DNA of 64,000 nt, taken from the NCBI GenBank assembly GCA_016795285.1, contig JAEUIC010000030.1, forward strand, positions 148,435 through 212,434, read 5' to 3'. This stretch comes from Planctomycetota bacterium (GTDB lineage: Bacteria; Planctomycetota; B15-G4; SIAN01). Of this stretch, positions 5,981 through 55,971 are shown piece after piece. The notes beneath the pieces are model-generated. The model saw only the letters and a list, made by a program, of their open reading frames with translations, was not told where the DNA came from and did no database searches. A program made the position numbers and the translations under genes. The first letter of the stretch is position 1. Every line of letters begins with the position of its first letter.

Positions 5981-6004
5981 GCCCGCCGCGGCGCGCGGCG
6001 CCCT

Positions 6005-6025
6005 GATCGCGGCGCTGCCGCGATC
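6005..6025 (+). terminator. Possible stem-loop after ftsH (GATCGCGGC-GCT-GCCGCGATC)
   Basis: Perfect 9-bp inverted repeat with a 3-nt loop, 25 nt after the ftsH stop. No T-tract follows. Confidence 0.3.
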
Positions 6026-6064
6026 GCAGCGTCACCGACCGGAGCGAGCGTCGTCCTCGAGACG

Positions 6065-7078: not shown

Positions 7079-7107
7079 AGCGCCGTCGCAAGCCGCCGTC
7101 GACGTGG

Positions 7108-41400: not shown

Positions 41401-41675
41401 CGGGCAAGTCGCCCGCCGACATGGCGCCCGACCTGAGCCTCGCCCGGGAGCGCCTCTCGCCGAACTGGGTGCGCCACTGGCTCGAGGTTCCGGAGGTCTA
41501 CCAGCCGGGCACGCGCATGCCGCCCTTCTGGAAGATCGAGGGCGGGGTGCGACCGTCGGTCGACCCCGACATCAACGACCCGGTCCGCGAAATGGACCTG
41601 CTGCGCGACTACCTCTTCTCCGACTCCTTCGCCGCGGACTACCAAGAGGTCGCCAAGAAGGCGCGGGGCGAGTGA
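38454..41675 (+). CDS. Membrane-anchored octahaem c-type cytochrome (1073 aa) of the bc-type complex
   Basis: AGGAG RBS and GTG start. One TM helix, a ~190-aa charged heptad-like region, then eight CxxCH motifs: CISCH, CSGCH, CYKCH, CFGCH, CMGCH, CFGCH, CIGCH, CVLCH. Confidence 0.85.
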   Translation: MAEERIKDAGATFFDVKAMNRWFLVSVAVLTVAYVASVVQDHDREFKGYQGRFFEMERELAVRQGRAAFDAAGGEKVIGDGVDTAGELRDEIERLRRMRDGDERRRPELATALHDAQFRFDVKNAEMKMAKARFEAERFIYEELAHHLGEHALEAPETEEGKAAYEKYLDLKRTYEQLDEENKQAESERDAAQQALAALDALDGDVAAKLVALERDVARLEKRADSFDAERGFTKFRNSIFFNFMAPTLTPRKIVVNEILDDLNFLSVPKVDMCISCHMASDRFKDYPAGNAHVTFGDEKNPLLNDDDSGAFRSHSKPELFCTSLSPHNQERFGCSGCHGGGNQRVGFAKTFHTPSDAHEREVWEEELHWHPVHEWEYPMLGSRFLEASCYKCHQDEVHIPGAEKWNRGRDIVSKLGCFGCHKMEPFDGVRRTGPPLGHVTSKFADLDFMLKWVDEPASFRPSTPMPAFFHRENRSMEPGRDAAEITALVTYLYNLSSPQQLKSYPGSGDAAKGKVLFGEFGGVGCMGCHGIDDFPTDKLGELRHGPELSGIGSKVTPDWLYTWILDPKSLWPATNMPDLRLTEQEAADLVAYLMTRRNVAFEQKSFAKPADDAPFEQILLEKLTERMTAARAAEEIAAMSGLEKRRKAGEYLLNHYGCFGCHEVPGYEDAKPIGAELNGWGSKHADRLDFGMVEFEWKDPEVAKFNRESWLEQKLKNTRFYDRGKDKKPFEKLKMPQFSQLTEGMSDADRDAVMTFVLSLVKDNTAPSIKRQLTADEQAVERGALLVREKNCIGCHLLYGEGGEIRNFQLGDEGKAYYPPLLDGQGARTQPAWLTSFLHDPVFGKGDGAKAHLRPWMKARMPTFGFTPAELNDVVAYFAHEKVWHTSTERELWDTLATKFRKDFPGYEEAQLRKADHTKVKLFHDLVARNYERQGGGFTYESEYPYGARPQPLVGDDLDKARNLFQKLQCVLCHMPGGVVPTGKSPADMAPDLSLARERLSPNWVRHWLEVPEVYQPGTRMPPFWKIEGGVRPSVDPDINDPVREMDLLRDYLFSDSFAADYQEVAKKARGE

Positions 41676-41731
41676 TTTGCGATGAGCTGCGGAGCTGAAT
41701 CGGCTCCTCACCTCCTCCTAGGAAATCGAAC

Positions 41732-42568
41732 ATGAAGCGAATGCACGACAAGACCCTCTGGATGCTCGCGCTCGGCATCGCCGGCGTCGCCATCAGCGCG
41801 GCGTGCGGCGGCGGCGAGTCCCGCAGCCGCAAATCCATCCGCGGTGGCGCGGAGAATCCGACGGCGGCGAATGCGCCCGCGGCCGGCGACGGTGCGGCGG
41901 CAGCCCAGAGCGGCGGCCTGAAGAAGGTCGATCCGGCCACGGCTGGCTCGATCACCGGCGTCGTCAAGTGGGACGGCGCGCGGCCGGCTCCCGAGGCTCT
42001 CGACCTGTCGGGCAACCCCGACTGCGCGAAGGCGGTGAAGGAGACCATCTACAAGGAAGACCTCGTCGTCAACGCCGACAACACCGTCGCGAACGCGCTG
42101 GTCTCCATCGACACGAACGACCGGTACGAGGTGCCCGCCGAGCCGGCGGTCGTCGACCAGGTCGGCTGCCGCTACATCCCGCACGTCTTCGCGCTGCAGG
42201 CCGGCCAGAAGCTGAAGATCAAGAGCTCCGACCCGACGCTGCACAACGTCCACTACATCCCGACGGGCGACGAGAACACCGAAGACAACTTCGCGATGCC
42301 GGCGCCCGGCGTTCGCGAGCGCACCTTCAACTCCGCCGACTGGATCAAGTTCAAGTGCGACGTGCACCCGTGGATGGGGGCGTGGGCGGCCGTGAAGACC
42401 CACCCGTTCTTCGCGGTCACCGGCACCGACGGCAAGTTCACCATCGCCAACGTCCCGGCCGGGACGCACACGCTCGTGCTGAAGCACGAGTCCCTCGGCG
42501 AGCAGACCGCGACCGTCACGGTCGAGGCCGGCAAGGTGGCCACCGCCGAGTTCACGCTGAAGAAGTGA
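41732..42568 (+). CDS. Lipoprotein with a cupredoxin-like (amicyanin-type loop) domain and a CarboxypepD_reg-like domain
   Basis: Lipobox LGIAGVAISAAC. Candidate type-1 Cu ligands are H in LHNVH and C-D-V-H-P-W-M (C-x2-H-x2-M). The C-terminus FFAVTGTDGKFTIANVPAGTHTLVL is a beta-sandwich. Confidence 0.6.
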   Translation: MKRMHDKTLWMLALGIAGVAISAACGGGESRSRKSIRGGAENPTAANAPAAGDGAAAAQSGGLKKVDPATAGSITGVVKWDGARPAPEALDLSGNPDCAKAVKETIYKEDLVVNADNTVANALVSIDTNDRYEVPAEPAVVDQVGCRYIPHVFALQAGQKLKIKSSDPTLHNVHYIPTGDENTEDNFAMPAPGVRERTFNSADWIKFKCDVHPWMGAWAAVKTHPFFAVTGTDGKFTIANVPAGTHTLVLKHESLGEQTATVTVEAGKVATAEFTLKK

Positions 42569-42579
42569 CGGACGCCCGT

Positions 42580-42618
42580 CCGGCCCGCGGCGCCGAGCGC
42601 GTCGCGGGCCGGTTGTTT
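42580..42618 (+). terminator. Rho-independent-type terminator/attenuator between the bc block and coxB
   Basis: CCGGCCCGCG(42580-42589)...CGCGGGCCGG(42603-42612) form a perfect 10-bp stem. The loop has an inner GCGC/GCGC pairing, and TTGTTT follows immediately. Confidence 0.5.
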
Positions 42619-42641
42619 GGAACGACGCCCCGGAGGCGCTC

Positions 42642-43487
42642 ATGCAGCAGGTTCGACCGCCCGAGTTCGGCGAAGCGTGGAAGTGGTGGCTCCCGCCGCA
42701 CTACTCCTCGTTCGGCGACGAAGTCGACACGCTCTTCCATTGGATCTTCTGGATCACGATGGTGACGTTCGTCGGCGTCGAGCTGGTGATGCTGTACTTC
42801 TGCTTCAAGTACAAGCGCAACCCGGCCCGCAAGGCGACCTACACCCACGGCAGCCACTCGCTCGAGGTGGCGTGGACGATCATCCCCGCGGTGATCCTCG
42901 TCGCGCTCGGCGTCGCCAGCACGAAGACGTGGGCGACCATCAAGAACCCGACCGACTCCGACTACCCGCAGGAGTTCCAGACGACGGTGAAGATCGTCGC
43001 CCAGCAGTTCGCGTGGAACGTCACCTACGCGGGTGACGACAAGACGCTCGGCACCGACGACGACTTCACCGAGACGAACATCCTGAACGTCCCGTTCGAG
43101 CCGATCGACGCCGAGGGCAACGCCACCACCGAGGAGAACGTCCGCGTGATGCTCACGTCGCAGGACGTGATCCACTCGCTCTTCATCCCGGTGCTGCGCG
43201 TGAAGCAGGACGCGGTGCCGGGCTACCTCGGCAACGTCTGGTTCGACGTGCAGCGCATGACGTCGCCCGGCCCCGACAAGAAGCACCTCACCGGCGACTC
43301 GCGCTACTCCGAGGACGGCCGCACCCTCATCGACTGGGAAGAGAGCTACGAGATCGCTTGCGCCGAGCTCTGCGGGCTCGGTCACTCGCAGATGCGCATG
43401 CAGCTGAAGGCCGTGCCGCGCGCCGACTGGGAGGCGTGGAGCCACACGAAGTCGGCCGCCGCCAAGGCGCGCGCCGCCGCCAAGTGA
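42642..43487 (+). CDS. coxB: Cytochrome c oxidase subunit II (CuA)
   Basis: GGAGG RBS. Two TM helices, DVIHSLFIPVLRVKQDAVPG and the CuA motif CAELCGLGHSQM. Confidence 0.9.
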   Translation: MQQVRPPEFGEAWKWWLPPHYSSFGDEVDTLFHWIFWITMVTFVGVELVMLYFCFKYKRNPARKATYTHGSHSLEVAWTIIPAVILVALGVASTKTWATIKNPTDSDYPQEFQTTVKIVAQQFAWNVTYAGDDKTLGTDDDFTETNILNVPFEPIDAEGNATTEENVRVMLTSQDVIHSLFIPVLRVKQDAVPGYLGNVWFDVQRMTSPGPDKKHLTGDSRYSEDGRTLIDWEESYEIACAELCGLGHSQMRMQLKAVPRADWEAWSHTKSAAAKARAAAK

Positions 43488-43541
43488 CCCCCCGTCCGCG
43501 CTGACCCGAAGAACGAACCAAACGGCTTGGAGCCGATCGAC

Positions 43542-45569
43542 ATGTCGACCACCGCCCCCGCCCCGGCCCACGCGGATCACGCCGCTGCCGGTCACGGCCA
43601 CCACGAGCTGCCGTTCCTCCGCAAGTGGGTCTTCTCGACCGACCACAAGGTGATCGGGCTGCAGTACCTGTTCTGCTGCCTCTTCACGCTGATGGTCGGC
43701 GGCCTGCTCGCGTTGATGGTCCGCTGGCAGATCGCCTACCCGGCCGGCGCCAAGCCGACCGAGGAGCAGGTGCAGGAGCTGCGTTCGCGCGGCCTCACCG
43801 GCGCCGAGCTCGACGCCGAGCTCGCGAAGATCGACAACGACCGTCCCTTCCCGATCCTCGGCGAGCTCTTGTGGGGCGAGCACCTCGAGCCGGAACTCGT
43901 CAACGCGGGCGAAGTCGGCGAGGCGGGCGTCTTCGGCAACAGCAACGGGATGATGCCGGCCGAGTGGTACAACGTCGCCTTCACGATGCACGCATCGGTG
44001 ATGATCTTCCTCGTCATCATCCCGATGCTCACCGGCGCCTTCGGCAACTGGGTCATCCCGCTGCAGCTCGGCGCCAAGGACATGGCCTTCCCGTTCCTGA
44101 ACGGACTCTCGTTCTGGACCTGGATCTGCGCGGTCCTGATCCTCTTCGCCAGCTTCTTCGTCGACCCGGCCGGCATCGGCGCCGGCGCCGGCTGGACCTC
44201 CTACCCGCCGTTGAGCGACGTCGTCACTCCGACGGCCGGACCCGGCCAGACGCTCTGGTGCATCGGCGTCATCATCGGCGGCACCTCATCGATCATGGGA
44301 TCGATGAACTACATCACCACGATCGTCAACCTGCGCGCGCCGGGGCTCTCGCTGTTCCGCATGCCGCTCACGACGTGGGCCGCGTTCATCACCTCGATCC
44401 TGCAGCTCTTCGCGACGCCGGTCCTCTCCTCGGCGATGGCGATGCTGCTCTTCGACCGGCACATGGGCACCAGCTTCTTCCTGCCGGAAGGGCTGATCTT
44501 CACCGGCGAGACCGTGCCGAATGCCGGCGGCGGCCAGGTGATCCTCTGGCAGCACATCTTCTGGTTCTATTCGCACCCCGCCGTCTACATCATGATCCTG
44601 CCGGCGATGGGGATCGTCTCCGACGTCATCGCCGTCTGGTCGCGCAAGCCGATCTTCGGCTACCGGCCGATGGTCTACTCCATGTCCGCGATCGCCGGCC
44701 TCGGCTTCGTGGTGTGGGGTCACCACATGTTCCAGTCGGGCATGAACCCGGTGCTCGGCACCACCTTCATGATCTCGACGATCATGATCGCGCTGCCGAG
44801 CGCGGTGAAGGTCTTCAACTGGCTCGGCACCTTGTGGGGCGGGCAGATCACCTTCTCGCCCGCGATGCTCTTCGCGCTCGGCTTCGTCTCGATGTTCGTG
44901 ATCGGCGGGTTGTCCGGCATCTACATGGCCAACGCGCCGTTCGACATCTTCATCCACGACACCTACTTCATCGTCGCGCACATCCACTACGTGCTCTTCA
45001 CCGGCTCGGTGATGGGCATCTTCTCGGGCATCTACCACTGGTTCCCGAAGATGTTCGCGCGCCACATGAACGACGCGTGGGGCAAGGTGCACTTCTGGCT
45101 GACGTTCATCTTCATGAACGGCGTCTTCTTCCCGATGCACATCATCGGGCTCGGCGGCTACCCGCGCCGCTACGCGAGCTTCCGCGGCTACGACTTCCTC
45201 GCGCCGTACGAAGGCATGAACGTCTTCATGACGTGGTGCGCCATCCTGCTCGGCTTGTCGCAGTTCATCTTCCTGGCCAACTTCTTCGGCAGCCTGCTGT
45301 TCGGCAAGAAGGCGACCAGCGACAACCCGTGGCACGCCAACTCGCTCGAGTGGTCGACGCAGACGCCGCCGCCGCACGGCAACTGGATCGGCCCGGTGCC
45401 GACCGTGTACCACGGTCCGTACGAGTACAGCAATCCCAACTGCAAGGAGGACTACGCTCCGCAGTGGATGCCGATGCAGACGATCTACGGCGGCTCGACG
45501 GCCGCGGCACCGGCCGCTCCGATCGTCGCGACGGGCGGCACGCCGCCCCCGCCGCACCCGGCCCACTGA
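43542..45569 (+). CDS. coxA: Cytochrome c oxidase subunit I (haem-copper oxidase, A-type features)
   Basis: WFYSHPAVYIMILP, VWGHHMF and HDTYFIVAHIHYVL. There is a long insert in the TM1-TM2 loop and a Pro/Ala-rich tail. The track's 43527 start is a TTG; ATG 43542 is preferred. Confidence 0.95.
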   Translation: MSTTAPAPAHADHAAAGHGHHELPFLRKWVFSTDHKVIGLQYLFCCLFTLMVGGLLALMVRWQIAYPAGAKPTEEQVQELRSRGLTGAELDAELAKIDNDRPFPILGELLWGEHLEPELVNAGEVGEAGVFGNSNGMMPAEWYNVAFTMHASVMIFLVIIPMLTGAFGNWVIPLQLGAKDMAFPFLNGLSFWTWICAVLILFASFFVDPAGIGAGAGWTSYPPLSDVVTPTAGPGQTLWCIGVIIGGTSSIMGSMNYITTIVNLRAPGLSLFRMPLTTWAAFITSILQLFATPVLSSAMAMLLFDRHMGTSFFLPEGLIFTGETVPNAGGGQVILWQHIFWFYSHPAVYIMILPAMGIVSDVIAVWSRKPIFGYRPMVYSMSAIAGLGFVVWGHHMFQSGMNPVLGTTFMISTIMIALPSAVKVFNWLGTLWGGQITFSPAMLFALGFVSMFVIGGLSGIYMANAPFDIFIHDTYFIVAHIHYVLFTGSVMGIFSGIYHWFPKMFARHMNDAWGKVHFWLTFIFMNGVFFPMHIIGLGGYPRRYASFRGYDFLAPYEGMNVFMTWCAILLGLSQFIFLANFFGSLLFGKKATSDNPWHANSLEWSTQTPPPHGNWIGPVPTVYHGPYEYSNPNCKEDYAPQWMPMQTIYGGSTAAAPAAPIVATGGTPPPPHPAH

Positions 45570-45596
45570 ACGGCAGCGCGATCGGCGCAGGGCAGC

Positions 45597-45624
45597 GCCC
45601 GGCCCGCGACGCGAGCGGCCGGGC
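45597..45624 (+). other. GC-rich stem-loop in the coxA-ctaA spacer (GCCCGGCC ... GGCCGGGC)
   Basis: Perfect 8-bp stem with a 12-nt loop that has an internal CGC/GCG pairing. No T-tract. It could be an attenuator or processing site. Confidence 0.25.
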
Positions 45625-45685
45625 CGATGCTCCCCGACGCATCCGCCTCGGAGGGGGAGGCGAGGCGCGGCGGGGCGAGAGGTAG

Positions 45686-46696
45686 ATGTCGTTGAACGCG
45701 AACGCCCCCTCCGCTGACCTGTCGGGCGAGCTCGATCGCTCCGGCGCCTCCGCTCGTCCGGAGGCCGCTCGGCCGCACCTCCCTGCGCGCCACCGCTTCG
45801 CCTGCCTCCACGTCGTCGCGACCTTCTGCCTGCTCGCGTTCGGCGCCTCGGTGACCAGCAACGACGCCGGGCTCGCGGTGCCCGACTGGCCAACCACCTA
45901 CGGCGACTTGAACCCGATCGCGCCGTACCTGCGCGGGTTGGTGAGCGGCCTGATCGCGCTGGAGCACAACCATCGCGTCTTCGGCATGGTGGTGGGGCTG
46001 CTGACGATCGTGCTGGCCACGTGGCTCTGGCGCACCGGCGAGACGACGACGCGCCGCCGGCTTGGCGCGTGGCTGCTGGCGCTGGTCTGCGTGCAGGGCG
46101 GGCTCGGCGGGCTCACGGTCCACATGAAGCTGCCCGCCGCCGTCTCGATCGCGCACGGCATGTTGGCGCAGACCTTCTTCTGCCTCTCGATCGTCACCGC
46201 GTGGCTGCTCTCGCGCGAGGCGCGCGACGCCGGCGAGGCGCGCCGCTCCGGGGCGCCGCTCGCGGCGCCGCCGTCGCTCGTGAAGGCGGCGCGCTTCGCC
46301 TTCGCCGTGATCTACCTGCAGCTCTTCTTCGGCGCGCTGGTGCGCCACACGGTCGCCAAGTCGCGCGTCCCGACCTTCGGCGACAGCGCGGTCGTGCTGC
46401 ACATGTGCTTCGCGCTCGTGGTCTTGATCGCGATCGGCCGCCTCGTCGCCACCACCAGCGCGGTCGAGCGGCTCGACGGGCGCCTCCTGCGGCCGGTCTT
46501 CGCGCTGGCTGGCCTCGTCTTCCTGCAGCTCCTGCTCGGCCTCCTCGCGGTGGCGACGCGCACCGATCCGCTGGTCACCGTGCTCCACGTCATCACCGGC
46601 GCGGCGCTGCTCGGCACCAGCTGCTTCGTGGTCGTCCGCACGCGCGCGCTGGCCGGCGGCGCCTCCGTCGAGACCGCCGCCGGGACCGCCGCATGA
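45686..46696 (+). CDS. ctaA: Haem A synthase (COX15/CtaA)
   Basis: SNDAGLAVPDWPTTYG, EHNHRVFGMVVG and paired His-containing helices (AHGMLAQ, LHVITGA); 8 TM helices. Confidence 0.85.
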   Translation: MSLNANAPSADLSGELDRSGASARPEAARPHLPARHRFACLHVVATFCLLAFGASVTSNDAGLAVPDWPTTYGDLNPIAPYLRGLVSGLIALEHNHRVFGMVVGLLTIVLATWLWRTGETTTRRRLGAWLLALVCVQGGLGGLTVHMKLPAAVSIAHGMLAQTFFCLSIVTAWLLSREARDAGEARRSGAPLAAPPSLVKAARFAFAVIYLQLFFGALVRHTVAKSRVPTFGDSAVVLHMCFALVVLIAIGRLVATTSAVERLDGRLLRPVFALAGLVFLQLLLGLLAVATRTDPLVTVLHVITGAALLGTSCFVVVRTRALAGGASVETAAGTAA

Positions 46697-47547
46697 GCGC
46701 GCCGTCGATGCGCGATCTCCTCGTGCTGACCAAGCCGCGCATCGTCGCGGCCGGCGCGCTCGCGGCGCTGGCGGGCTACCTCGCGCCGCTCGATCACGTG
46801 CGGCTGCTGCCGTTGCTCGAGGCGTTGGCGGCGATCGGCGGCATCACGGCGGCCGCCGGCATCCTGAACCAGGTGCTCGAGCGCGACATCGACGCCCGCA
46901 TGCCGCGCACCGCCGATCGGCCGCTGCCGGCCGGGCGCGTCGGCGTCCGGTTCGCGACGCTGCTCGGTTGCGTGCTGGCCGCGGCGAGCCTCGCCCTTTC
47001 GGCATGGCGCATCAACGGCCTCACGACGGCGCTGATGGTCTTCGCGTTCGTCAGCTACCTCTTCGTCTACACGCCGTTGAAGCGCCACACGACGCTGAAC
47101 ACCTTCGTCGGCGCGGTGCCGGGCGCGCTGCCGCCGGTGCTGGGCTGGACCGCCGCCACCGGCGATCTCGGCCGCGGCGCCTACGCCCTCTTCGCGATCA
47201 TGTTCCTCTGGCAGCTGCCGCACTTCCTCGCCATCGCGTGGCTCTACCGGCGCGACTACGAGTTGGGCGGCTTGAAGATGCTGCCGGAGCGCGATCCCGA
47301 CGGCGCCTTGGTGTCGCGCCAGATCTGCGTCCACGCCGTCTCGCTCTGCCTCGTCGCGCTGCTGCCGTTCCGCTTCCAGATGGCGGGGCCGGTCTACCTG
47401 GTCGGCTCGCTCGTGCTCGGCCTCGGCTTCGCCATCCCGGCGTTCCGCTTCTGGCGCGAGAGGAGCGACGCATTGGCGCGGCAGGTGATGCGCGCGTCGT
47501 TGATCTACCTCCCCGGCATCCTCTGCCTCCTGGCGCTCAAAGCATGA
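46693..47547 (+). CDS. ctaB: Protohaem IX farnesyltransferase (haem O synthase)
   Basis: The ATG overlaps the ctaA stop (ATGA). LTKPRIV, NQVLERDIDARMPRTADRPLPAG, FLWQLPHFLAIAW. Confidence 0.9.
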   Translation: MSAPSMRDLLVLTKPRIVAAGALAALAGYLAPLDHVRLLPLLEALAAIGGITAAAGILNQVLERDIDARMPRTADRPLPAGRVGVRFATLLGCVLAAASLALSAWRINGLTTALMVFAFVSYLFVYTPLKRHTTLNTFVGAVPGALPPVLGWTAATGDLGRGAYALFAIMFLWQLPHFLAIAWLYRRDYELGGLKMLPERDPDGALVSRQICVHAVSLCLVALLPFRFQMAGPVYLVGSLVLGLGFAIPAFRFWRERSDALARQVMRASLIYLPGILCLLALKA

Positions 47548-47873
47548 ACCCGCACGAACGCGAGGAAAGCCGCGCCGCCACCGGCGCTCCTCCCGCCCAG
47601 GCGCCACCGCCGCCGCCGCCGATCGACGAAGCGGCCCGGCGCCGCCGCATCCGCCGCTTCGGCCTCGCGCTTGCAGCAGGTGTCGCGGTCCTCGTGCTGT
47701 TCGCGATCGGCTACGTCACGCTCTTCGACCACGTGCTGGCCGATCCGACCCGCCCGCCGACCGCCACTGCGCAACCCAATCCGCGCGTCGTGATCTTCGA
47801 GGTGCTGCTCGCGGCTGCGCTGGCCGTCGGGGCGACGACGTGGTGGGTGCGCCGCAAGGGGCGCTCGTCATGA
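47544..47873 (+). CDS. Small two-TM membrane protein of unknown function in the oxidase assembly block
   Basis: ATGA overlaps at both ends (with ctaB and the SCO gene). Pro-rich N-terminus, then two hydrophobic helices: FGLALAAGVAVLVLFAIGYV and VVIFEVLLAAALAVGATTWWV. Confidence 0.5.
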   Translation: MNPHEREESRAATGAPPAQAPPPPPPIDEAARRRRIRRFGLALAAGVAVLVLFAIGYVTLFDHVLADPTRPPTATAQPNPRVVIFEVLLAAALAVGATTWWVRRKGRSS

Positions 47874-48643
47874 ACCAGCCGATCGAGCCGAATCCGCCGG
47901 CCTCTGCGCCGGAGTCGACCGCGCCGCCGGCGCCGAATGGCGCGCGGCCCGCCGCCAAGCCGGGCTCCTTCGCGCCGATCGCACTCGGCCTCGCGCTGAC
48001 GATGCTGGTCGCGGTGGCGATCCAGCGGCTGCGCAGCGGCGCAGACGATCCGTCGGCTGATCCTGCGGCTGGCGCCGCAGCGGCGATCGGCAAGGGCGAG
48101 AAGCTCGCGGTGTGGGGGCCGATGCCGGAGATCGAGCTGATCGACGCGAAGAACCGCCCCTATCCGCTCGCGCAGCAGCGCGGCCGCGTCACCGTGGTGA
48201 ACTTCTTCTTCACCGGCTGCCCGGGTCCGTGCGTCGACCTCACCCAGAAGGTGCGCACCCTGCTGGCGAGCTTCCGCGCGGAGCCCGACGTCGACTTCCT
48301 CAGCATCAGCGTCGATCCCGAGGCCGACACGCCCGATCAGCTCGCCACCTTCGCGCGCGTGCAGGGCGGCGAGTTCCTGCGCTGGCACTGGCTCACCGGC
48401 ACGAAGCAGCAGGTCACCGACGTCTGCCTCGGCTTCTTCGCGCCGTTCGGCGAGAAGGATGCGGCGGGCGACATCGTCCACTCGACCAAGCTCTACGTGG
48501 TCGATCGCCAGGGACGGATCCGCTCGATGGTGAACACGACGCTCGATCCCGACTGGCTCGCCAGTGCGGCGCATGCGATCCGCCTGCTGCTCGCGGGCGA
48601 TGCCGGTGCCGACGAGGCGGAGCTGCCTTCGAAAGCGAACTGA
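47870..48643 (+). CDS. SCO1/SenC-family copper chaperone / thiol-disulfide protein
   Basis: TM anchor, thioredoxin-fold motif VVNFFFTGCPGPCVD (CxxxC) and the conserved His in DIVHSTKLYVVD. Confidence 0.85.
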   Translation: MNQPIEPNPPASAPESTAPPAPNGARPAAKPGSFAPIALGLALTMLVAVAIQRLRSGADDPSADPAAGAAAAIGKGEKLAVWGPMPEIELIDAKNRPYPLAQQRGRVTVVNFFFTGCPGPCVDLTQKVRTLLASFRAEPDVDFLSISVDPEADTPDQLATFARVQGGEFLRWHWLTGTKQQVTDVCLGFFAPFGEKDAAGDIVHSTKLYVVDRQGRIRSMVNTTLDPDWLASAAHAIRLLLAGDAGADEAELPSKAN

Positions 48644-48694
48644 GGGCGTCGCCGCGCCCCCTGCCGAGCGATCCCCCAAGAGGTCCGTCCCGCG

Positions 48695-49189
48695 ATGGCG
48701 CTGCTCGCCTTCCACCTGCCGACGCTGAACGCCTGCCTCAACGCGCTGGCGGCGCTGCTGCTGGTCTGCGGCTTCGTCGCGATCCGCCGCGGGCAGCGCG
48801 AGCGGCACAAGCGGCTGATGCTCGCCGCCTTCGCGACCTCGACCGTCTTCCTGGTCTGCTACCTGATCCACAAGGCGACCGCCGGCCACACCCCGTTCCC
48901 CGGCAGCGGCACGGCGAAGACGATCTACCTTGCGATCCTCCTCACCCACACGATCCTCGCCGCGAGCGTCGTCCCGCTGGCGCTGCTGACCATGCGCGCC
49001 GCCTTCACGCAGAGGTTCGAGCGCCACAAGAAGCTCGCGCGCGTCACCTTCCCGATCTGGCTCTACGTCTCGATCACCGGCGTCGTGATCTGGTGGTTCC
49101 TCTACTCGGGCACCTTCGACCCGCCTGTCGCGCCTGCAAGTCCGGAGGCCGGCGCTCAGCCGCCCGCCGGTGCCGCGGCGCCGCGCTAA
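48695..49189 (+). CDS. DUF420-family membrane protein (CtaM-like oxidase assembly factor)
   Basis: Four TM helices with NA.LN...A..LL..G...I...Q...H...M and ILLTHTILAA...HKKLARVTFPIWLYVSITGV, typical of DUF420. Confidence 0.8.
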   Translation: MALLAFHLPTLNACLNALAALLLVCGFVAIRRGQRERHKRLMLAAFATSTVFLVCYLIHKATAGHTPFPGSGTAKTIYLAILLTHTILAASVVPLALLTMRAAFTQRFERHKKLARVTFPIWLYVSITGVVIWWFLYSGTFDPPVAPASPEAGAQPPAGAAAPR

Positions 49190-49200
49190 CCTCCGCCGCC

Positions 49201-49557
49201 ATGTCGCCGCTCGCTCCAGCGCTTGCTCGCTTCGCCGCCACGTTCCGCGCGCCGGGGCGGGAACGCGTCGCAGCGGTGGCTCGCCTCGCGCGCTGGCTCG
49301 TGCTGGCGGCGCTGCTGCTCGGCGGCCCGTTGCCGCGCGCGGCGGCGCAATGCGCGATGTGAAAGGACTCCGCCTACGATCAGGTGGATCGTGCCCAAAG
49401 CGACCGACTCGGTGCTGCCTTCAATTCGAGCGTCTACCTGATGCTCGGAGTCCCGGCGCTGCTGCTCTGCGGGTTGGTGACGGTGATCGTCGTCAACGTG
49501 CGCGCGCGGGCGCGTCTCGAGGGCGACGCGCCGCGCGATCCGTCGTCGGCGCCGTGA
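49201..49557 (+). CDS. Candidate selenoprotein: small signal-peptide plus C-terminal-TM-anchored protein with a C-A-M-U(TGA) motif
   Basis: The frame of ATG 49201 (alternative GTG 49276 gives the signal MARLARWLVLAALLLGGPLPRAAA/Q) reads ...QCAM, then TGA at 49360-49362. It continues in the same frame with G/C-rich third positions: KDSAYDQVDRAQSDRLGAAFNSSVYLMLGVPALLLCGLVTVIVVNVRARARLEGDAPRDPSSAP, then TGA at 49555-49557. A hairpin lies 13 nt after the TGA. Without recoding this would be two very short ORFs. Confidence 0.45.
49375..49393 (+). promoter_or_regulatory. SECIS-like hairpin downstream of the in-frame TGA
   Basis: UACGAUC-AGGUG-GAUCGUG: 6 Watson-Crick pairs plus 1 G-U pair. The apical loop contains GGU at nt 24-26 counted from the U of UGA. 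That is close to the position of the G23/U24 loop of the E. coli fdhF SECIS. Confidence 0.35.
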
Positions 49558-49570
49558 GGGCGAACGGGCC

Positions 49571-50539
49571 GTGACGCTGCCGCCCCCGCCGCCGACCCCG
49601 CCGCCGCCATCGCTTCCGGCCGCGCTCCCGTTCGTCAAGCTGCACGGCTGCGCGAACGACTACGTGCTGGTCGATGGCTGCGCGGCGACGCTGCCCGATT
49701 GGGGCGCCTTCGCGCGCGCCGCCTGCGATCGCCGCCGGGGCATCGGCGCCGACGGGCTCCTCGTGGTGTTGCCGGCCGCGCCCGCTGCGGACGCGCGCAT
49801 GGCGATGTTCAACCCCGACGGCAGCGAGGCGGAGATGTGCGGCAACGGGCTGCGCTGCCTCGGCAAGTTCCTCCACGACCGCCGCCGCGTCGGCCGCGAG
49901 TTCCGCATCGCGACGCGCGCCGGCGTGGTGGCGATGCAGGTCGAGCAGATCGATGCCGCCGGCCGCGCCACCCGCCTCGCCGCGACGCTCGGCGTGCCCG
50001 ACTTCCGCCGCGCCGCGGTGCCGATGGCCGGTCCGCCCGAGCTCCCCGCGCGCGACGAGCCGTTCGCCCTGGCGGGACGCACGTTGCGCCTCACCGCCTT
50101 GCGGCTCGGCAACCCGCACGCCGTCGTCTTCGTCGACGACGTGGCGCGCTACCCGGTCCACTCGGTCGGACCGGCGCTGGAACGCGACCCGCGCTTCCCG
50201 GCGCGCGTCAACGTCGAGTTCGTCGAGGTGGTCGCGAACGGCCGGCTGCGTCAACGCACGTGGGAGCGCGGCGCCGGCGAGACGCTGGCGTGCGGCAGCG
50301 GTGCGACGGCTGCCGCCATCGTCGCGCGCCTGGTGCACGGCTTCCCGGCCGACGTCGCCGTCGCGCTGCTCGGCGGCGAGGTGACCGTCCGTTGGGAGGG
50401 GGAGGGGCAGCCGGCGACGCTCGCCGGCCCGGCGGTCGAGATCGGCAGCGGGACGCTCGATCCCGCCGCGCTGCTCGCCGACGCCGCGCCGCCGATCGGC
50501 TTCGCCGCGCCCGCTCCCGACGCACCGCCGGCCGGTTGA
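49571..50539 (+). CDS. dapF: Diaminopimelate epimerase
   Basis: FVKLHGCANDYVLVD, MFNPDGSEAEMCGNGLRC, GNPHAVVFV, ERGAGETLACGSGATAAA (both catalytic Cys). GTG start with a Pro-rich leader; the start is uncertain. Confidence 0.9.
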   Translation: MTLPPPPPTPPPPSLPAALPFVKLHGCANDYVLVDGCAATLPDWGAFARAACDRRRGIGADGLLVVLPAAPAADARMAMFNPDGSEAEMCGNGLRCLGKFLHDRRRVGREFRIATRAGVVAMQVEQIDAAGRATRLAATLGVPDFRRAAVPMAGPPELPARDEPFALAGRTLRLTALRLGNPHAVVFVDDVARYPVHSVGPALERDPRFPARVNVEFVEVVANGRLRQRTWERGAGETLACGSGATAAAIVARLVHGFPADVAVALLGGEVTVRWEGEGQPATLAGPAVEIGSGTLDPAALLADAAPPIGFAAPAPDAPPAG

Positions 50540-50577
50540 GCGCACCGCGCCGCACCACGAGCCGGCGCATCGCGAGC

Positions 50578-50615
50578 GCACCTCCTATACTCCCGCGCCG
50601 TTCGTCGGGAGGTGC
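50578..50615 (+). promoter_or_regulatory. Hairpin pairing an upstream CCUCC box with the RBS of the following gene
   Basis: GCACCTCC (50578-50585) is the perfect complement of GGAGGTGC (50608-50615), which contains the GGAGG located 3-10 nt before GTG 50619. The 22-nt loop begins with TATACT. Confidence 0.35.
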
Positions 50616-50618
50616 GAT

Positions 50619-51647
50619 GTGAAGCGGTCGAGAGGTGGCGGCGCCGGCAATCCGGCGATGGGCAACGGCGGAGCGGCAGCGGCGGCGCGTGCGCTCGAAC
50701 CGGCGCCGACCGCGGAGGCAGCGGGCATGGCGAGCGGTGCGCAGCCGAGCGAGGCGGAGGGCTGGTTCTCCGTGAGCCGTGCCGCGCAGTTGCTCGGCCT
50801 GCCGCTGCCGCGCATCTTCGACGCGATCCGCGACGGCAAGCTGCAGGTGCGCTTCGAGCCGGGCAAGCCGGGCGAATCGGACAAGCCGCAGGTCACCTCG
50901 CCCGAGCTGAAGCAGAAGGCGCTGCAGTCGCAGTCGCCCGCTGGAACGGCGGCGGCGATCGGAGCCGCGCCGCCCAGCGCGCCCGCTCCGACGCCAACCA
51001 CGTCAGCCACGTCCACCACGTCACCGACGCCATCGACGTCGAGCGCGCCCGCGGCGGTCGCGCCCGCTGCAGCGGCCCGCGCGCCGGCGCCCGAAGCCAC
51101 ACCATCGCTCGAGCCCGCGCTCGCCGACGCGCGGCGCACCGTGCTGCGGCTCGAGAGCGAGGCGAAGGAGACGCGCGCGACGCTCGAGGAACTCGAGGAG
51201 CGGCTCGACGCGGCGCTGAAGGCGGTCTACGAGCGCGACGTCCGCATCGCGCGCCTCGAGGCGGAGGTCGCCGCCAACGTGAAGCTGCGCGAAGGGGCGG
51301 ACGGCTTCATCCGCCACCTCGAACACCGCCTCGACAAGACCGAGGAGCGCTCCGAGGAGAAGGAGAAGGAGATCCGCCGGCTCGCGGTCGGGCTCGGCGA
51401 GGCGCGCAGCGAGGTGCGGTTGCTGCGGCCGCCCGACGCTCCGCCGCCGTCGCCGTGGAAGCGGCGCGGGCGCGACGCGCTGCTGCTGCTGGTGGCGGTG
51501 GCGATCGGCGGCGCGGTCGGCTACTTCGCGTACCAGATGTCGAGCAAGGAGCTGCCGCTCCAGGCGAGCATCGCGGCAGGCAGCGGAGCGGTGGCGGCAT
51601 GGATCGTGGCGACCTTGGTCGAGCGGCTGCGGAAGGCGAAGGCGTGA
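50619..51647 (+). CDS. Membrane-anchored protein with an excisionase/MerR-like HTH, a Pro/Ser/Thr/Ala linker and a coiled coil
   Basis: WFSVSRAAQLLGLPLPRIFDAIRDGKL (HTH-like), a PTPTTSATSTTSPTPSTSS linker, a heptad region LESEAKETRATLEELEERLDAALKAVYERDVRIARLEAE... and two C-terminal hydrophobic helices. The start is uncertain (GTG 50619 or internal ATGs). Confidence 0.55.
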   Translation: MKRSRGGGAGNPAMGNGGAAAAARALEPAPTAEAAGMASGAQPSEAEGWFSVSRAAQLLGLPLPRIFDAIRDGKLQVRFEPGKPGESDKPQVTSPELKQKALQSQSPAGTAAAIGAAPPSAPAPTPTTSATSTTSPTPSTSSAPAAVAPAAAARAPAPEATPSLEPALADARRTVLRLESEAKETRATLEELEERLDAALKAVYERDVRIARLEAEVAANVKLREGADGFIRHLEHRLDKTEERSEEKEKEIRRLAVGLGEARSEVRLLRPPDAPPPSPWKRRGRDALLLLVAVAIGGAVGYFAYQMSSKELPLQASIAAGSGAVAAWIVATLVERLRKAKA

Positions 51648-52516
51648 ACGAGGCCGTGCGGCGCGCGCGGCGGCTGCCGCGGTCGCTCTTGGCAGGCGTG
51701 GCCGCGGGCGTGCTGGCGTGCTGCAGCGAAGCGCCGCCGCCGCCGCCGCTCTTCGAGGGGGCGGCGCCGCTCCGGCTCGCGACGGTCGAGCGCGGCGAGT
51801 TGCCGACCCCGCAGGAGATCGAGCAGCTCATTGCTCGCCTCGTGGAGGTCGCGGGCGGCGCCGAGCGGTGGCGGACGCTGCGCTTCAAGCGGGTCGAGGA
51901 TCTCTACCTGTTGCGCACGGGCAGCCAGCTCGGCAACCAGGTGATCGCGACGACGTGGATGCGCCCCGACCAGACGGTGCGCGTCGAACTCGAGTACCGC
52001 GGCGGCGAACGCGAGTTGCGCGTGATGCTGAACCGCGAGGAGTTCGTCCATCCGCAGCTCGGTTCGCTGCAGTACGCGACCGGCGGCACCCAGCAGCACG
52101 TCGAGTGGGACTGGGAGGTCGTGCAGCTTCCGTACAACCTGCTCGCCGCCGAGGAACTGAAGCCGCTGCCGTACGAGGGGAGCGGCGCCGATCGACGCAT
52201 CGGGCTGGCGGTGAAGCTGCCGGGCTTGAGCCCGCCGTTCGAGGCGTGGATCGATCCGGCGGGGCCGGTCGTCGTCGAGGTGCGCACCGAGTTGCCGGTC
52301 ACCGCCGACCTCTCGTTCCGGACGATGGCGCGCCATCGGCAGCTCTTCTCCGACTGGCGGCGCGTCGACGGCGTGCTGCTCGCGCATCGCCGCGAGATCC
52401 ACGCCGACGATCGCCGCATCGGGCTGGCGGAGACGCGCAGCTACGACCTCGCCGTGGAGATCCCCGACTCGGTGATCCTGCCGATCCGGCCCGAGCTCCC
52501 CGAGCTGCCGAAGTAA
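51644..52516 (+). CDS. Lipoprotein of unknown function (LolA-like/DUF-type beta-rich protein)
   Basis: The GTG overlaps the upstream stop (GTGA). Lipobox LAGVAAGVLAC. The ~270-aa mature part is beta-rich with no recognisable catalytic motif. Confidence 0.6.
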   Translation: MNEAVRRARRLPRSLLAGVAAGVLACCSEAPPPPPLFEGAAPLRLATVERGELPTPQEIEQLIARLVEVAGGAERWRTLRFKRVEDLYLLRTGSQLGNQVIATTWMRPDQTVRVELEYRGGERELRVMLNREEFVHPQLGSLQYATGGTQQHVEWDWEVVQLPYNLLAAEELKPLPYEGSGADRRIGLAVKLPGLSPPFEAWIDPAGPVVVEVRTELPVTADLSFRTMARHRQLFSDWRRVDGVLLAHRREIHADDRRIGLAETRSYDLAVEIPDSVILPIRPELPELPK

Positions 52517-52526
52517 GCGCTCCGGC

Positions 52527-52556
52527 GCGCGCCGAGGGGGTCGACCCCCGGCGCGC
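52527..52556. terminator. GC-rich palindromic hairpin between convergent genes (possible bidirectional terminator)
   Basis: GCGCGCC-AG(bulge)-GGGGG TCGA CCCCC GGCGCGC: about 12 bp of stem around a TCGA loop. It is embedded in a larger palindrome CGGCGCGCGCCG...CGGCGCGCGCCG. No T-tract. Confidence 0.4.
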
Positions 52557-52623
52557 GCCGTTCGAGAGCAGCGATCACGAGTCGCAGCGAGCCTCCGGAC
52601 ACCGAGGCTCCGGACACCGCCGC

Positions 52624-55600
52624 TCAGTGCGGGGTGGTGCCCGACACGGCGTTGGTCATCGCGAGCCCTTCCGGCGCGCCCGGATCGAGCACGATCGCCT
52701 GGATGAAGAAGCTCTCGCCGGCCGGAACGTCGCTCGCGATGCAGTCGCTGAAGCTGAACGCGCCGTTGCCGTCGCTGAAGAGCCCCGACAGCACGATGTC
52801 GGGCGCCGGCACCAGCACGCCGCCGGCGAACGGGATGCAGGTCGGCGTGAGGCCCACCACGATCCACGCCGGAGCGTTCGGCAGCGCGCCGGTCACGTCG
52901 GCGGTGATGAAGGTGAGCGGCCGCATGTCGCCGCTCATCGTCAGCAGCGGTGCGCCGTTGGTGCCGGCGAGCGACTCGCCGAGGTCGGCCCACGCGCCGG
53001 TCGGCTCGCTGCGGAAGCGGACGGTGAGGTAGATCTGCGTCGGGTCGACCGTCGCGCCGGCGATGGCGAGGCCGTCGCACGGCGAGACGTCCTGGAACGA
53101 GAGGCCGCCGGTGGTGAGAAAGGGGCCGTCGATGCGCGGGCCGGCGAACGGCGTGGCGCGCAGCGCCTGCACGCGCGCCGCGAGCCGGTAGACGCGGCCC
53201 GGCTCGAGCGTGGCGTCGAGCGGGTGGTAGTTGCGGTCGTTGCGCGCGCGGATGCCGTAGCTGCGCAGGCCGCCGGCCGCCAGCACCGGGTTCAGCGGAT
53301 CGGTCACGTCCCACACGAAGAAGTTGGCCGGCACGCCGTTGCAGTCGACCGTCGCGGCGAACTTGCCGTCCAGCACGATCTCCTCGAGGCGCTGCGCCGC
53401 CGTCGCGCCGCTCGTGTCGATCTCGAGGCCGACGAACCAGTCGCTCGACGGAGCGGGCACGGGCGCCGCGATCGGCGTGTCGAGGCCGGCCAGCACGAGG
53501 CTCTCGTTGACGGTGGTGAGCGGCTCGAGCGGCGCGGCCGGCACGAAGTCGCAGCCGTCGATCTGCACGCGGCCGCTGCGGAAGACGACGATCTCGCGAT
53601 CGTGCAGCTGCGCGAGGTCCAAGTCGCCGAGCACCGGGTTCACGTGGCGATCGACGCGCACGGTCTTCTGCGCGGCAGTCCCCTTGAAGTCGACGATCAG
53701 CCGGAAGTGGACGTCCTTCTCGGGCGCCGGATCGGGATCGATCGGCAGCGCGAAGTGGAGCACGTACTCGTTCTGGTTCAGGTAGCCGGCCGAAGTGGAG
53801 ACCACCTTGGTGCGGCGGTTGGTGTCGGTCGGGTGGTCGAACGGGACGATCGTCACCTGCGCGCCGAACTCCGACTCGAGGCCGTCGTCGAAGCGGTCGG
53901 AGTCGCGCATCACGCGCACGCGCACGTGGCGCTTGCTCTCGAACGGCGTGGTGCCGTCGTAGGTGTAGTTCTCGTAGAGGCGCCCGCGCTCCGCCCAATT
54001 GCCGAGCGCCGAGTCGAGGTCGCCGTCCTTGTCGAAGTCGCCCCACGCGGGCGTGGCATCGGTGACGTGACCGGCCGGGATGCTGTGGGTCGCGACCGTG
54101 AAGTGGCGATCGCCGCCGCTCTCCTGGAACTGGTTGCGCCGGAAGACCTCGCTCGACGTGACGTCGATGTCGCCGTCGTTGTCCCAGTCCTCGAACGAGA
54201 GCCCGAGGCAGAGCCCGGTGTTGAACGAGTCGAAGACGCTCTTCGGCTGGACGACGAAGGTGCCGTCGCCCTTGCTCTCGAACATGCGCACGCCCTTCGT
54301 GCTGTCGCAGAAGGCGAGGCAGAGGTCCATGTCGCCGTCCATGTCGTAGTCGAGGAAGCCGCCGCCCTCGTCGAGCACGTTGCTGAACACCACTCCCGAG
54401 CCGTTCTCCGTCATCGCCTCGAAGAGCGGGTTGCCCTGCGTCGAGACGTTGCGGTAGATCGTGTTGTTGCAGTAGAGGTCGAGGTCGCCGTCGAGGTCGA
54501 CGTCGACGAACTCGGCGCCTTCGGGGCGATTCACCGGCTGCGGCGGATTGTCGAGGCCGGCCGGACCGGAGAGCTCCTTGAACGAGTAGACGCCATTCGC
54601 GTCGGGGCCCTGGTTGTGGAGGAAGTAGTTCCCCGGGCCGCCGATCCAGTCGGGGTAGACCGGGAAGAACCAGTCGAGGTAGCTGTCGCCGTCGACGTCG
54701 GCGACCGAGTTGGTCTCGCACGGCGCCTGCGGCCGCACGTCGACGATCGCGGGATTGCCGGCCACCTCCTCGAAGAGGTCGTTGCCGAGCGCGTGGAGGA
54801 AGAAGGCGCCGCCGCTGCGCGGCTCGTCGCAGATGTCGAGCAGCTGGTCGCCGTCGTAGTCGGCCATGGCGCAGCCGTAGCGCGTGATCTTCGTCATCCA
54901 GGTCGACAGGTCGACCTGCTTCACCCAGTCGCTGCCGCCGAGGTTGCGCCAGAGCGCCTCGCCGTCGGCGTTCACGACATCGATCCAGCCGTCGTGGTCG
55001 TAGTCGCCGAAGCTGATGCCGTAGGTGTTGCCGAACACGAGGCCGGTCGGGAACCGCGAGTTGGTCCAGAGGCGCAGCGGCACGTCGTCGGCGGCGGGGC
55101 CGAGGCCCGAGCTCGGCGAGTAGAGCGTCGAGTGGACCGCGAGGACGGCGCCCTGCGTGGTGCCGGGCAGGATGTTGTTGGGCATCCACGCCATGCGCCA
55201 GACGTCGCTCGGGCCGGGCGGCAGCGCCGGCGCCCACTCGACGGGGAAGGTGCCGCCGACCAGCGTGTCGTTGCGCCACTCGCGGGAGTAGACGACGTTG
55301 GTGATCGGCGCCTTGCCGTTGTTGCGCAGCGTCACGCCGATCACGAGCGCGCCGGTGAACGGACAGAAGGAGAAGGTGTGCTCGATCTCGAGCGCACCGA
55401 CGCTGCTGACCATCACCGCGCCGCCGGCGGTGAAGCTGCTGCTGACCGGGGTCACCGGCGTGCGCCGCGCGTAGTCGGCGATCGGGCCGGCGCCCACCGC
55501 GCTCACATGGCCACCGAGCCGGTCGAACGAGACTCCGAACCACTCGGCCGTCCCGCGCGTGAACTCGATCATCGGGCCGTAGGTGGTGCAGAGCCCTTCG

Positions 55601-55743
55601 GCGGGCGGCGCCACCATCACTCCGATCGGATCGAGGCGGACGGCGTAGTCGCCGTTGCTGATCGTCTGGCCCGCGGCAGCGGAGGCGAAGGCCGCGAGCG
55701 CGCAGGGGAGAGCGAACGGCCAGCGTCGAGTCTCGGGGTGCAT
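52624..55743 (-). CDS. Secreted FG-GAP/VCBS-repeat protein with an ASPIC/UnbV domain (CRTAC1-like) and a long C-terminal extension
   Basis: GAGGAG RBS, ATG 55743, signal MHPETRRWPFALPCALAAFASAAAGQ. There are at least 7 Ca-binding-type repeats (FGDYDHDGWIDV, ADYDGDQLLDI, VADVDGDSYLDW, FVDVDLDGDLDLY, FLDYDMDGDMDL, FEDWDNDGDIDV, WGDFDKDGDLD). An UnbV-like stretch GAQVTIV...STSAGYLNQNEYVLHFAL follows. Confidence 0.85.
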   Translation of the reverse strand: MHPETRRWPFALPCALAAFASAAAGQTISNGDYAVRLDPIGVMVAPPAEGLCTTYGPMIEFTRGTAEWFGVSFDRLGGHVSAVGAGPIADYARRTPVTPVSSSFTAGGAVMVSSVGALEIEHTFSFCPFTGALVIGVTLRNNGKAPITNVVYSREWRNDTLVGGTFPVEWAPALPPGPSDVWRMAWMPNNILPGTTQGAVLAVHSTLYSPSSGLGPAADDVPLRLWTNSRFPTGLVFGNTYGISFGDYDHDGWIDVVNADGEALWRNLGGSDWVKQVDLSTWMTKITRYGCAMADYDGDQLLDICDEPRSGGAFFLHALGNDLFEEVAGNPAIVDVRPQAPCETNSVADVDGDSYLDWFFPVYPDWIGGPGNYFLHNQGPDANGVYSFKELSGPAGLDNPPQPVNRPEGAEFVDVDLDGDLDLYCNNTIYRNVSTQGNPLFEAMTENGSGVVFSNVLDEGGGFLDYDMDGDMDLCLAFCDSTKGVRMFESKGDGTFVVQPKSVFDSFNTGLCLGLSFEDWDNDGDIDVTSSEVFRRNQFQESGGDRHFTVATHSIPAGHVTDATPAWGDFDKDGDLDSALGNWAERGRLYENYTYDGTTPFESKRHVRVRVMRDSDRFDDGLESEFGAQVTIVPFDHPTDTNRRTKVVSTSAGYLNQNEYVLHFALPIDPDPAPEKDVHFRLIVDFKGTAAQKTVRVDRHVNPVLGDLDLAQLHDREIVVFRSGRVQIDGCDFVPAAPLEPLTTVNESLVLAGLDTPIAAPVPAPSSDWFVGLEIDTSGATAAQRLEEIVLDGKFAATVDCNGVPANFFVWDVTDPLNPVLAAGGLRSYGIRARNDRNYHPLDATLEPGRVYRLAARVQALRATPFAGPRIDGPFLTTGGLSFQDVSPCDGLAIAGATVDPTQIYLTVRFRSEPTGAWADLGESLAGTNGAPLLTMSGDMRPLTFITADVTGALPNAPAWIVVGLTPTCIPFAGGVLVPAPDIVLSGLFSDGNGAFSFSDCIASDVPAGESFFIQAIVLDPGAPEGLAMTNAVSGTTPH

Positions 55744-55971
55744 CGTCGTCGACTCCTCGAAAGGGGGGCGAGCCAAGGTGAGCCGCGAGCCGGAGTGGGG
55801 CGAGGGACCGGCGCGACGGCAAGTCGGGTCGCGGAACCTTGCAGTAGCCAGTGCTCCGGTGGCGGTGACGAAGCGCTCCAAGTCTTTGCAAAACTGACAC
55901 TTACGGAAAACCGGTAGGCGCCGATGCCGCGCCTCCGAAGGGGCGCCGGTCCGCGGACGTCGGCGCGCGGC

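Follow-up and report, generated by a model that had tools for sequence, protein, structure and literature searches.

Does a TGA in the middle of a small bacterial gene end its translation, or is it decoded as selenocysteine (Sec)? The gene that raises this question lies at positions 49201-49557, on the plus strand, of a 64,000-nt stretch of DNA from a Planctomycetota bacterium (GenBank assembly GCA_016795285.1, contig JAEUIC010000030.1, positions 148,435 to 212,434), which is referred to here, at its full length, as the window. It follows the genes for the copper chaperone SCO and for a DUF420 protein within a cytochrome c oxidase cluster, and an earlier note, made from the sequence of the window, had proposed that it encodes a new selenoprotein with a Cys-Ala-Met-Sec motif. 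The work described here supports the selenoprotein interpretation: in all likelihood, the small gene is a real gene whose internal TGA is decoded as Sec.

The reading frame on either side of the TGA

From its ATG at 49201 (a GTG at 49276 is an alternative start), the small gene begins as an open reading frame (ORF) of 53 codons that runs to ...PLPRAAAQCAM and then meets an in-frame TGA at 49360-49362, the proposed Sec codon. Translation thus confirms what the earlier note had read, a small ORF after SCO and DUF420 that ends AAAQCAM-TGA. The frame stays open for another 64 codons (KDSAYDQVDRAQSDRLGAAFNSSVYLMLGVPALLLCGLVTVIVVNVRARARLEGDAPRDPSSAP) until it reaches a TGA stop of its own at 49555-49557. 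When positions 49201-49560 are translated straight through, the result is MSPLAPALARFAATFRAPGRERVAAVARLARWLVLAALLLGGPLPRAAAQCAM, a stop, KDSAYDQVDRAQSDRLGAAFNSSVYLMLGVPALLLCGLVTVIVVNVRARARLEGDAPRDPSSAP and a second stop, and the read-through product has 118 residues. The G+C content of the window is 73%; within the gene, the G+C fractions at codon positions 1, 2 and 3 are 0.83, 0.66 and 0.85 upstream of the TGA and 0.73, 0.48 and 0.83 downstream of it, the last of these values confirming the strong third-position bias that had been claimed for the 64 downstream codons. This coding-type pattern is confined to the frame of the small gene and is not seen in the other two forward frames. Annotation splits the gene: a 53-residue fragment (P0003) is on record, a 38-residue gene is called on the contig L155, and the fragments overall are of 53 and of 38-57 residues.

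The TGA is not an artefact of assembly, because an independent assembly of the same organism carries it as well. This Logan contig (L155, from SRR12144677) is 99.987% identical over 15,238 nt to window positions 38695-53932, and the TGA is identical. A genome-wide reassignment of UGA to Trp or Gly is scarcely conceivable and is refuted by the stop-codon usage of the window itself. Here TGA is an ordinary stop for coxB (43485), for SCO (48641), for two further genes (554 and 2653) and for the small gene (49555), and either a new start or an intergenic gap comes after each of the five; therefore, the genetic code has not been reassigned.

Relatives with TGA and relatives with cysteine

The same TGA recurs in related sequences. 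In the closest genome locus (L003), from an uncultured Phycisphaerales metagenome-assembled genome, ...PLPRAAAQCAM is followed by TGA at the same place and then by KDSAYDQVDRAQSERLGKAFN. A scan of metagenome contigs for the pattern AAQC[AV]M followed by TGA, for which the listed matches give a lower bound, finds at least 14 family members with the TGA (L034, L056, L062, L075, L079, L083, L084, L097, L105, L111, L118, L125, L134 and L143). Counting the window and L003, there are at least 11 distinct TGA-form sequences; 63-86 open codons follow the TGA in 10 of 11 distinct sequences, L075 being the exception. Within the window-like clade, the ratio of nonsynonymous to synonymous divergence (dN/dS) over codons 12-51 after the TGA is 0.14-0.35, at a dS of 0.5-1.3, and this comparison of codons indicates that the downstream frame is under purifying selection among TGA-bearing sequences. 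Given such low values, the downstream part must have been translated throughout the divergence of the TGA lineages, and a recent nonsense mutation is excluded.

Homologues with Cys were sought with the read-through product as the query, Cys being placed where the TGA stands. Two of them, P0001 (126 residues) and P0002 (110 residues), are single ORFs that read ...PRAAAQC[VA]MCK[ED]... and are 63-66% identical over the matched part, and their contigs share the gene order SCO, DUF420, small gene, dapF. In both, a Cys aligns with the TGA, a comparison that the earlier note had called for, and the alignment agrees with its view that the TGA stands where a CxxC motif would have its second Cys. At the DNA level, this codon is TGC in the Logan contigs L001 and L002 and TGA in the window, in L003, in the 14 or more metagenome loci and in L155, a difference of one base. 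The Cys of a CxxC motif is the classical position of Cys/Sec exchange (PMC1794560).

That single base could be taken to mean that the window holds a pseudogene or a sequencing error, a TGC having become a nonsense TGA while the frame downstream of it has so far escaped decay, and the second stop in L075 does point to decay in at least one contig. However, the TGA is found in at least 11 distinct sequences at a dS of about 0.5-1.3, all but one of them open and with a dN/dS of 0.14-0.35; L155, assembled independently, has the identical base; and a conserved hairpin that includes a compensatory change follows the TGA (see below). Conservation effectively refutes this explanation, which is most improbable.

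The split annotation raises another possibility, that there are two genes here: one for a short secreted peptide that ends in QCAM, and one for a small membrane protein with its own start. Gene callers do divide the locus in this way (the 53-residue P0003 and the 38-residue call on L155), and the window has a GTG at 49384 that might serve the second gene. Yet this GTG is not conserved: the L034 group has GAT in its place, and L079, L084 and L097 have GTC. The interval from the TGA to the conserved region contains no start codon that the sequences have in common. Furthermore, the first codons beyond the TGA are conserved as K-[DEQS]-x-x-Y and can be aligned with the Cys homologues, every one of which is a single ORF, and cleavage of the signal peptide would leave of the upstream product a mere 4-residue peptide. 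Two separate genes are thus very unlikely.

The Cys forms belong to a large family that has no name. A scan of one genome per species yields 30 loci, 29 of which (in Acidobacteriota and Bacteroidota) encode a signal peptide, AAAQC[AV]MC, a linker and a transmembrane (TM) helix. A protein search that started from a Pedobacter member finds 113 relatives, all annotated as hypothetical or uncharacterised and none with a Pfam domain, and searches of Pfam, NCBIfam and PDB sequences give no significant match for the Cys-substituted product or for the Cys homologues. An exhaustive profile search brings the family to 2,301 clusters (at 50% identity) with E <=1e-3, of which 876 have E <=1e-10, and it spans Bacteroidota, Acidobacteriota and Planctomycetota. 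The earlier note had mentioned small CxMC(K/R) proteins with a C-terminal TM segment near oxidase assembly genes of other phyla; these are real and numerous. Among the 150 best representatives of the 2,301 clusters, 145 have A-Q-C-[APST]-M-C about 26 residues from the start (CAMC in 100, CPMC in 34, CSMC in 9 and CTMC in 2), and the residues at the predicted signal cleavage site are A at -1 and A, V, L or T at -3. Alignment A5 shows no variation in the Q, C, M and C or in one Asn, and hardly any in one Pro.

In alignments A2 and A5 the window product falls within this A-QCxMC family, with U in place of the second C. It shares the family's architecture, its invariant residues (Q, C, M, C, N and P) and its place beside DUF420, SCO and cox genes; it differs in having TGA for the second Cys and a SECIS-like hairpin (SECIS, selenocysteine insertion sequence) inside the region that codes for the linker. 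The linker motif Y-[DG]-Q-x-D-R occurs only in the Sec clade. In a neighbor-joining tree of 55 residues, whose resolution is low, the Cys forms L001 and L002, which do not have the hairpin, nest inside the Sec clade; this placement hints at a Sec-to-Cys reversion, or at repeated exchange, in the lineage.

The hairpin and the decoding of the TGA

The SECIS-like hairpin, UACGAUC-AGGUG-GAUCGUG, lies on the plus strand at 49375-49393, with its 5' arm at 49375-49381, its loop at 49382-49386 and its 3' arm at 49387-49393. The earlier note was right about its sequence, its arms and the GGU at nt 24-26 (the U of UGA being nt 1), but not in placing it thirteen nt after the TGA: the spacer is 12 nt, and the coordinates were off by one base. 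A stretch of 47 nt that spans both the TGA and the hairpin (49354-49400, plus strand) is identical in the window and L003 at 47 of 47 positions, third codon positions included, whereas the rest of the gene is 69% identical. Synonymous differences between these two sequences are absent from codons 1-11 after the TGA, as compared with a dS of about 1.0 for codons 12-51.

Across the 11 distinct sequences, the helix named above is paired in 98.7% of cells, compared with 16-38% in controls slid by 1-3 columns, and RNAalifold predicts exactly this helix (49375-49393). One of its pairs covaries, being A-U in seven sequences and G-C in four. The compensatory change carries an amino-acid cost in the 5' arm, where GAT (Asp) becomes GGT (Gly), and is synonymous in the partner, where GAT becomes GAC. 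In every sequence two or three of the six hairpin codons end in T, codons 6 and 10 always doing so, whereas elsewhere 7% of codons end in A or T. The energy of the helix ranges from -7.4 (window) to -9.8 kcal/mol in Sec forms, and is about +9 in the Cys forms L001 and L002, which are unable to form it. Folding and covariation, which the earlier note had suggested as a check, therefore both come out in favour of the hairpin.

The consensus for a bacterial SECIS (bSECIS) is a loop of 3-9 nt with a G in its first two positions and a stem of 4-16 bp, located 16-37 nt from the UGA, with a minimum free energy <=-7.5 kcal/mol (PMC13188914). Here, the loop is 5 nt, AGGNN (G at position 2, then another G), the stem is 7 bp, and the distance from UGA to loop is 19 nt. 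The element of Escherichia coli fdhF, when folded in the same analysis, has a GGUC loop 18 nt from its UGA. The hairpin thus resembles the fdhF type in its position downstream of the UGA and in the GG of its small apical loop, and the claim that its geometry is that of a bacterial SECIS holds. As in other bacteria, the hairpin 12 nt downstream of the UGA would act as a SECIS and recruit SelB with Sec-tRNA(Sec), which would then outcompete termination. Such SelB/SECIS-dependent insertion is the best-supported mechanism, all the standard in-silico signs of it other than the Sec machinery being in place.

Several points weigh against decoding as Sec. No tRNA-Sec is found by ARAGORN and Rfam in the 64-kb window or in 15 Sec loci, and no selA or selD by tblastn with E. 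coli SelA, SelB and SelD in the window and all loci; these sequences are a small fraction of each genome, so both results are uninformative rather than negative. Two crude scans for in-frame TGA codons detect no second selenoprotein candidate in the 64 kb (the one filtered for hairpins missed even the known Sec gene). The hairpin of the window, at -7.4 kcal/mol, is borderline with respect to the -7.5 threshold of the consensus, and a rival local hairpin in the window is more stable (-10.2 versus -7.4 kcal/mol). The covariation consists of a single base pair and may reflect one evolutionary event, and L075 carries an extra in-frame TAG. As for what the product does, support is limited to its neighbourhood and motif, and an AlphaFold model of the Cys homologue P0001 (two long helices; predicted local distance difference test score, pLDDT, 74) is uninformative on function. 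The rival fold, UCCGCCU/AGGUGGA, has itself been rejected: it is not conserved, and its -10.2 kcal/mol does not beat that of its shuffles.

Read-through might also proceed without selenium, a near-cognate tRNA inserting Trp or Cys, or a SelB-like factor acting with a tRNA(Sec)-like tRNA charged with Cys, and the hairpin serving to stimulate it. A few bacteria are known to have tRNA(Sec)-like tRNAs by which Cys is inserted at UGA, and a Sec machinery was not found in the window or the loci, small part of the genome as these are. Against this stand the SelB-type SECIS geometry and loop sequence of the hairpin and the site itself, which is the CxxC Cys at which Cys and Sec are classically exchanged (PMC1794560); moreover, there is no obvious selective reason to keep a TGA and a costly hairpin merely to insert Cys or Trp. 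Selenium-free read-through is accordingly unlikely, though less so than a pseudogene or two genes, and insertion of Sec is preferred.

With regard to the machinery, the full Sec set is present in some Planctomycetes (PMC4807772), and a literature search on Sec use in Phycisphaerae turned up nothing specific. Two weak tblastn matches to SelB, at 30% identity, lie in L018, a Cys-form Bacteroidota locus, and in L122, which is a chance match to the search pattern. A 90-nt 'tRNA-???' with a four-base anticodon that ARAGORN reports in L111 (5234-5323) is a false positive, being GC-rich and repeat-like with no Rfam match.

Two contigs with the Sec gene show further stops. In L075 (Ga0137463_1009070, minus strand, match at about 1825-1845) the CAG (Gln) closing the hairpin's 5' arm has become TAG, and the C-to-U change keeps a U-G pair; Ala rather than Lys follows the TGA, and the frame is otherwise intact to the normal stop. 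Decay of this copy, an error in sequencing or variation within the population may account for it. The in-frame-TGA scans of the window and the larger loci, with and without the hairpin filter, otherwise brought up only neighbouring genes in a common frame, terminators or off-frame artefacts. In L143, an in-frame TGA at 5676 (plus strand, ORFs 4338-8111) joins ORFs of 446 and 810 codons with high third-position G+C. Their joint product is a large secreted protein, rich in Asp and Gly and homologous to a 1085-residue protein of the window (52624-55881, minus strand), in which Arg-Phe and not Cys aligns with the TGA (WTNSRFPTG versus WTNAT*PNG, the asterisk marking the TGA). It may be a nonsense variant or some other recoding event; the same genome has the Sec gene as well.

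Architecture, gene neighbourhood and possible function

The read-through product is predicted to begin with a signal peptide (49201-49347, plus strand) that has a basic n-region, the h-region WLVLAALLLGG and a c-region ending in AAA, and signal peptidase I would cut at this AxA-type site directly before the invariant Gln50. The family motif Q-C-A-M-U-K (49348-49365) is thereby placed at the predicted mature N-terminus. A predicted TM helix, VYLMLGVPALLLCGLVTVIVV, follows at 49432-49494; it is a hydrophobic stretch that is kept in all family members, AlphaFold models a long helix over it, and the basic tail NVRARAR starts at 49495. The family's invariant Asn is encoded at 49423-49425 and its near-invariant Pro at 49453-49455. 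The exported and cleaved product would therefore hold Q-C-A-M-U on a hydrophilic linker of about 23 residues tethered to one TM helix; to judge from its sequence, it is probably a single-pass membrane protein with the Q-C-A-M-U-K motif on the periplasmic face and the basic tail in the cytoplasm. The layout given by the earlier note (signal peptide, CxxU at the mature N-terminus, linker and C-terminal anchor) is, with Cys for the Sec, the one predicted across the homologous family.

Other assignments of the motif have been considered and rejected. It is not the heme site of a c-type cytochrome (CxxCH), as the residue after it is K, R, T, S, A or Q and never H in 145 representatives; nor is it a lipobox (L-[AS]-[GA]-C), since Gln invariably precedes the Cys. 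An oxidoreductase of the thioredoxin fold (TlpA/DsbA type) is not indicated either: there is no thioredoxin-like Pfam match, and only about 25 residues lie outside the membrane.

The neighbours of the small gene, all on the plus strand, are those of an aa3-type oxidase cluster. Immediately upstream is the DUF420 (CtaM-type) gene (48695-49189; Pfam PF04238, E = 1.6e-43), and before it the gene for the SCO1/SenC copper chaperone (47870-48643; PF02630, E = 1.4e-20, and gene calls on L155). Farther upstream are coxB (42642-43487), coxA (43542-45569), ctaA (45686-46696) and ctaB (46693-47547), assigned by Pfam on the L155 gene calls and by tblastn synteny in related loci. The oxidase context that had been described for the gene is thus confirmed, and it extends to the relatives. 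All assessable Sec loci have cox, ctaB, SCO or DUF420 neighbours, and those of sufficient extent all show SCO, DUF420, small gene, dapF. Of 31 Cys loci, 28 have an oxidase-related neighbour (cox, ctaB, SCO or DUF420) and 24 have DUF420 nearby, mostly adjacent. In Bacteroidota, the order around the Cys form is COX2, COX1, CtaB ... SCO, DUF420, small gene, and equivalent clusters occur in Acidobacteriota. In Planctomycetota and Bacteroidota loci DUF420 directly precedes the small gene, and in two Acidobacteriota loci it comes about 1 kb after it.

Because the gene follows SCO and DUF420 in coxBA-ctaAB clusters of three phyla, and because Cys-x-Met-Cys/Sec is invariant, we infer a copper or thiol role for the product: this site may handle Cu(I), or engage in thiol/selenol exchange, during maturation of the copper centres of aa3-type oxidases. 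Confidence in such a specific copper or redox function is much lower than confidence in Sec decoding. Cys-x-Met-Cys/Sec is a plausible Cu(I) site, and membrane-tethered copper handling would be the favoured role, thiol/selenol exchange with Sco or CoxB being a second option. DUF420 corresponds to CtaM, a factor that is needed late in the making of aa3-type oxidases, possibly for the assembly of CuB; Sco serves CuA (PMC9145763). A functional partnership of CtaM with the small protein is plausible. Nearly all Planctomycetota and Bacteroidota loci have CtaM directly upstream; CtaM is, however, polytopic and does not have the motif, and its link to the small gene is one of adjacency only. In a more specific proposal, QC(x)M(C/U) is the active site of a hitherto unrecognised, membrane-tethered mini-chaperone that works with CtaM and Sco in the copper loading of aa3-type oxidases in Bacteroidota, Acidobacteriota and Planctomycetota, and that has been upgraded with Sec in a soil Phycisphaerae-like clade. 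This is tentative, and somewhat more likely to be wrong than right as it stands. If true, this would be the first selenoprotein dedicated to the biogenesis of an aerobic respiratory oxidase.

Comparison with known systems sets the product apart. Like the oxidase copper chaperones Sco (CxxxC plus His), PCuAC, CtaK and Cox11 (PMC9145763), it would be membrane-tethered and face the periplasm, with Cys/Met ligands for Cu(I) and an oxidase/heme A gene context, but it has no sequence or domain similarity to them, is far smaller, and carries its motif at the extreme mature N-terminus; its binding of copper is putative. TlpA-type oxidoreductases, which reduce Sco and CoxB, share the CxxC-type motif on the periplasmic side and the context of oxidase biogenesis; in contrast to them, no thioredoxin fold is detected in the window protein, and some 25 exposed residues are unlikely to form a stand-alone reductase. 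Known CxxU selenoproteins (such as SelW-like, AhpD-like, the putative mercuric transport protein C/SxxU and Sec forms of the CopZ family) derive from CxxC homologues and are decoded by way of a bSECIS hairpin, as fdhF is. With them it has in common a UGA at the Cys of CxxC and the existence of Cys homologues, and metal-binding CxxC proteins that have Sec forms are among the recorded cases (PMC13188914, Table 1). It differs from these in being a peptide-like, membrane-surface module of about 70 residues, with no thioredoxin-fold or other globular domain.

The small family is not listed among the 119 prokaryotic selenoprotein families of a 2026 inventory (PMC13188914, Table 1) and has no match to their Pfam/NCBIfam models, which agrees with its description in the earlier note as a candidate new selenoprotein. 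It is best described as a new selenoprotein family that is the Sec clade of an uncharacterised Cys family, the mechanism of decoding being the known bacterial one. New selenoprotein families are still regularly found, and this would be one that current inventories and annotation models have missed. It would also mean that aerobic soil Planctomycetota use selenium, and that they do so in assembling cytochrome c oxidase. A Cys-to-Sec exchange is also a strong natural marker of a chemically active cysteine; the invariant QCxMC is thereby flagged as a functional redox or metal site in a very common, unnamed small protein. This would provide a starting point on the mechanism of CtaM (DUF420) and on copper-centre assembly in phyla in which classical chaperones were not seen here.

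Two other features of the cluster deserve mention. Between ctaB and SCO, at 47544-47873 (plus strand), there is a 109-residue ORF with a Pro-rich N-terminus, one hydrophobic segment and no Pfam match, which is kept at the same position in L003, L079, L111 and L118 with 52-69% identity and may be another uncharacterised member of the oxidase cluster. Directly upstream of coxB, on the plus strand, are a very large multi-domain cytochrome c protein of more than 1,000 residues (38695-41675) and then a protein with a CarboxypepD_reg-like domain (41732-42568), a pair that forms an unusual front end for an aa3 oxidase cluster.

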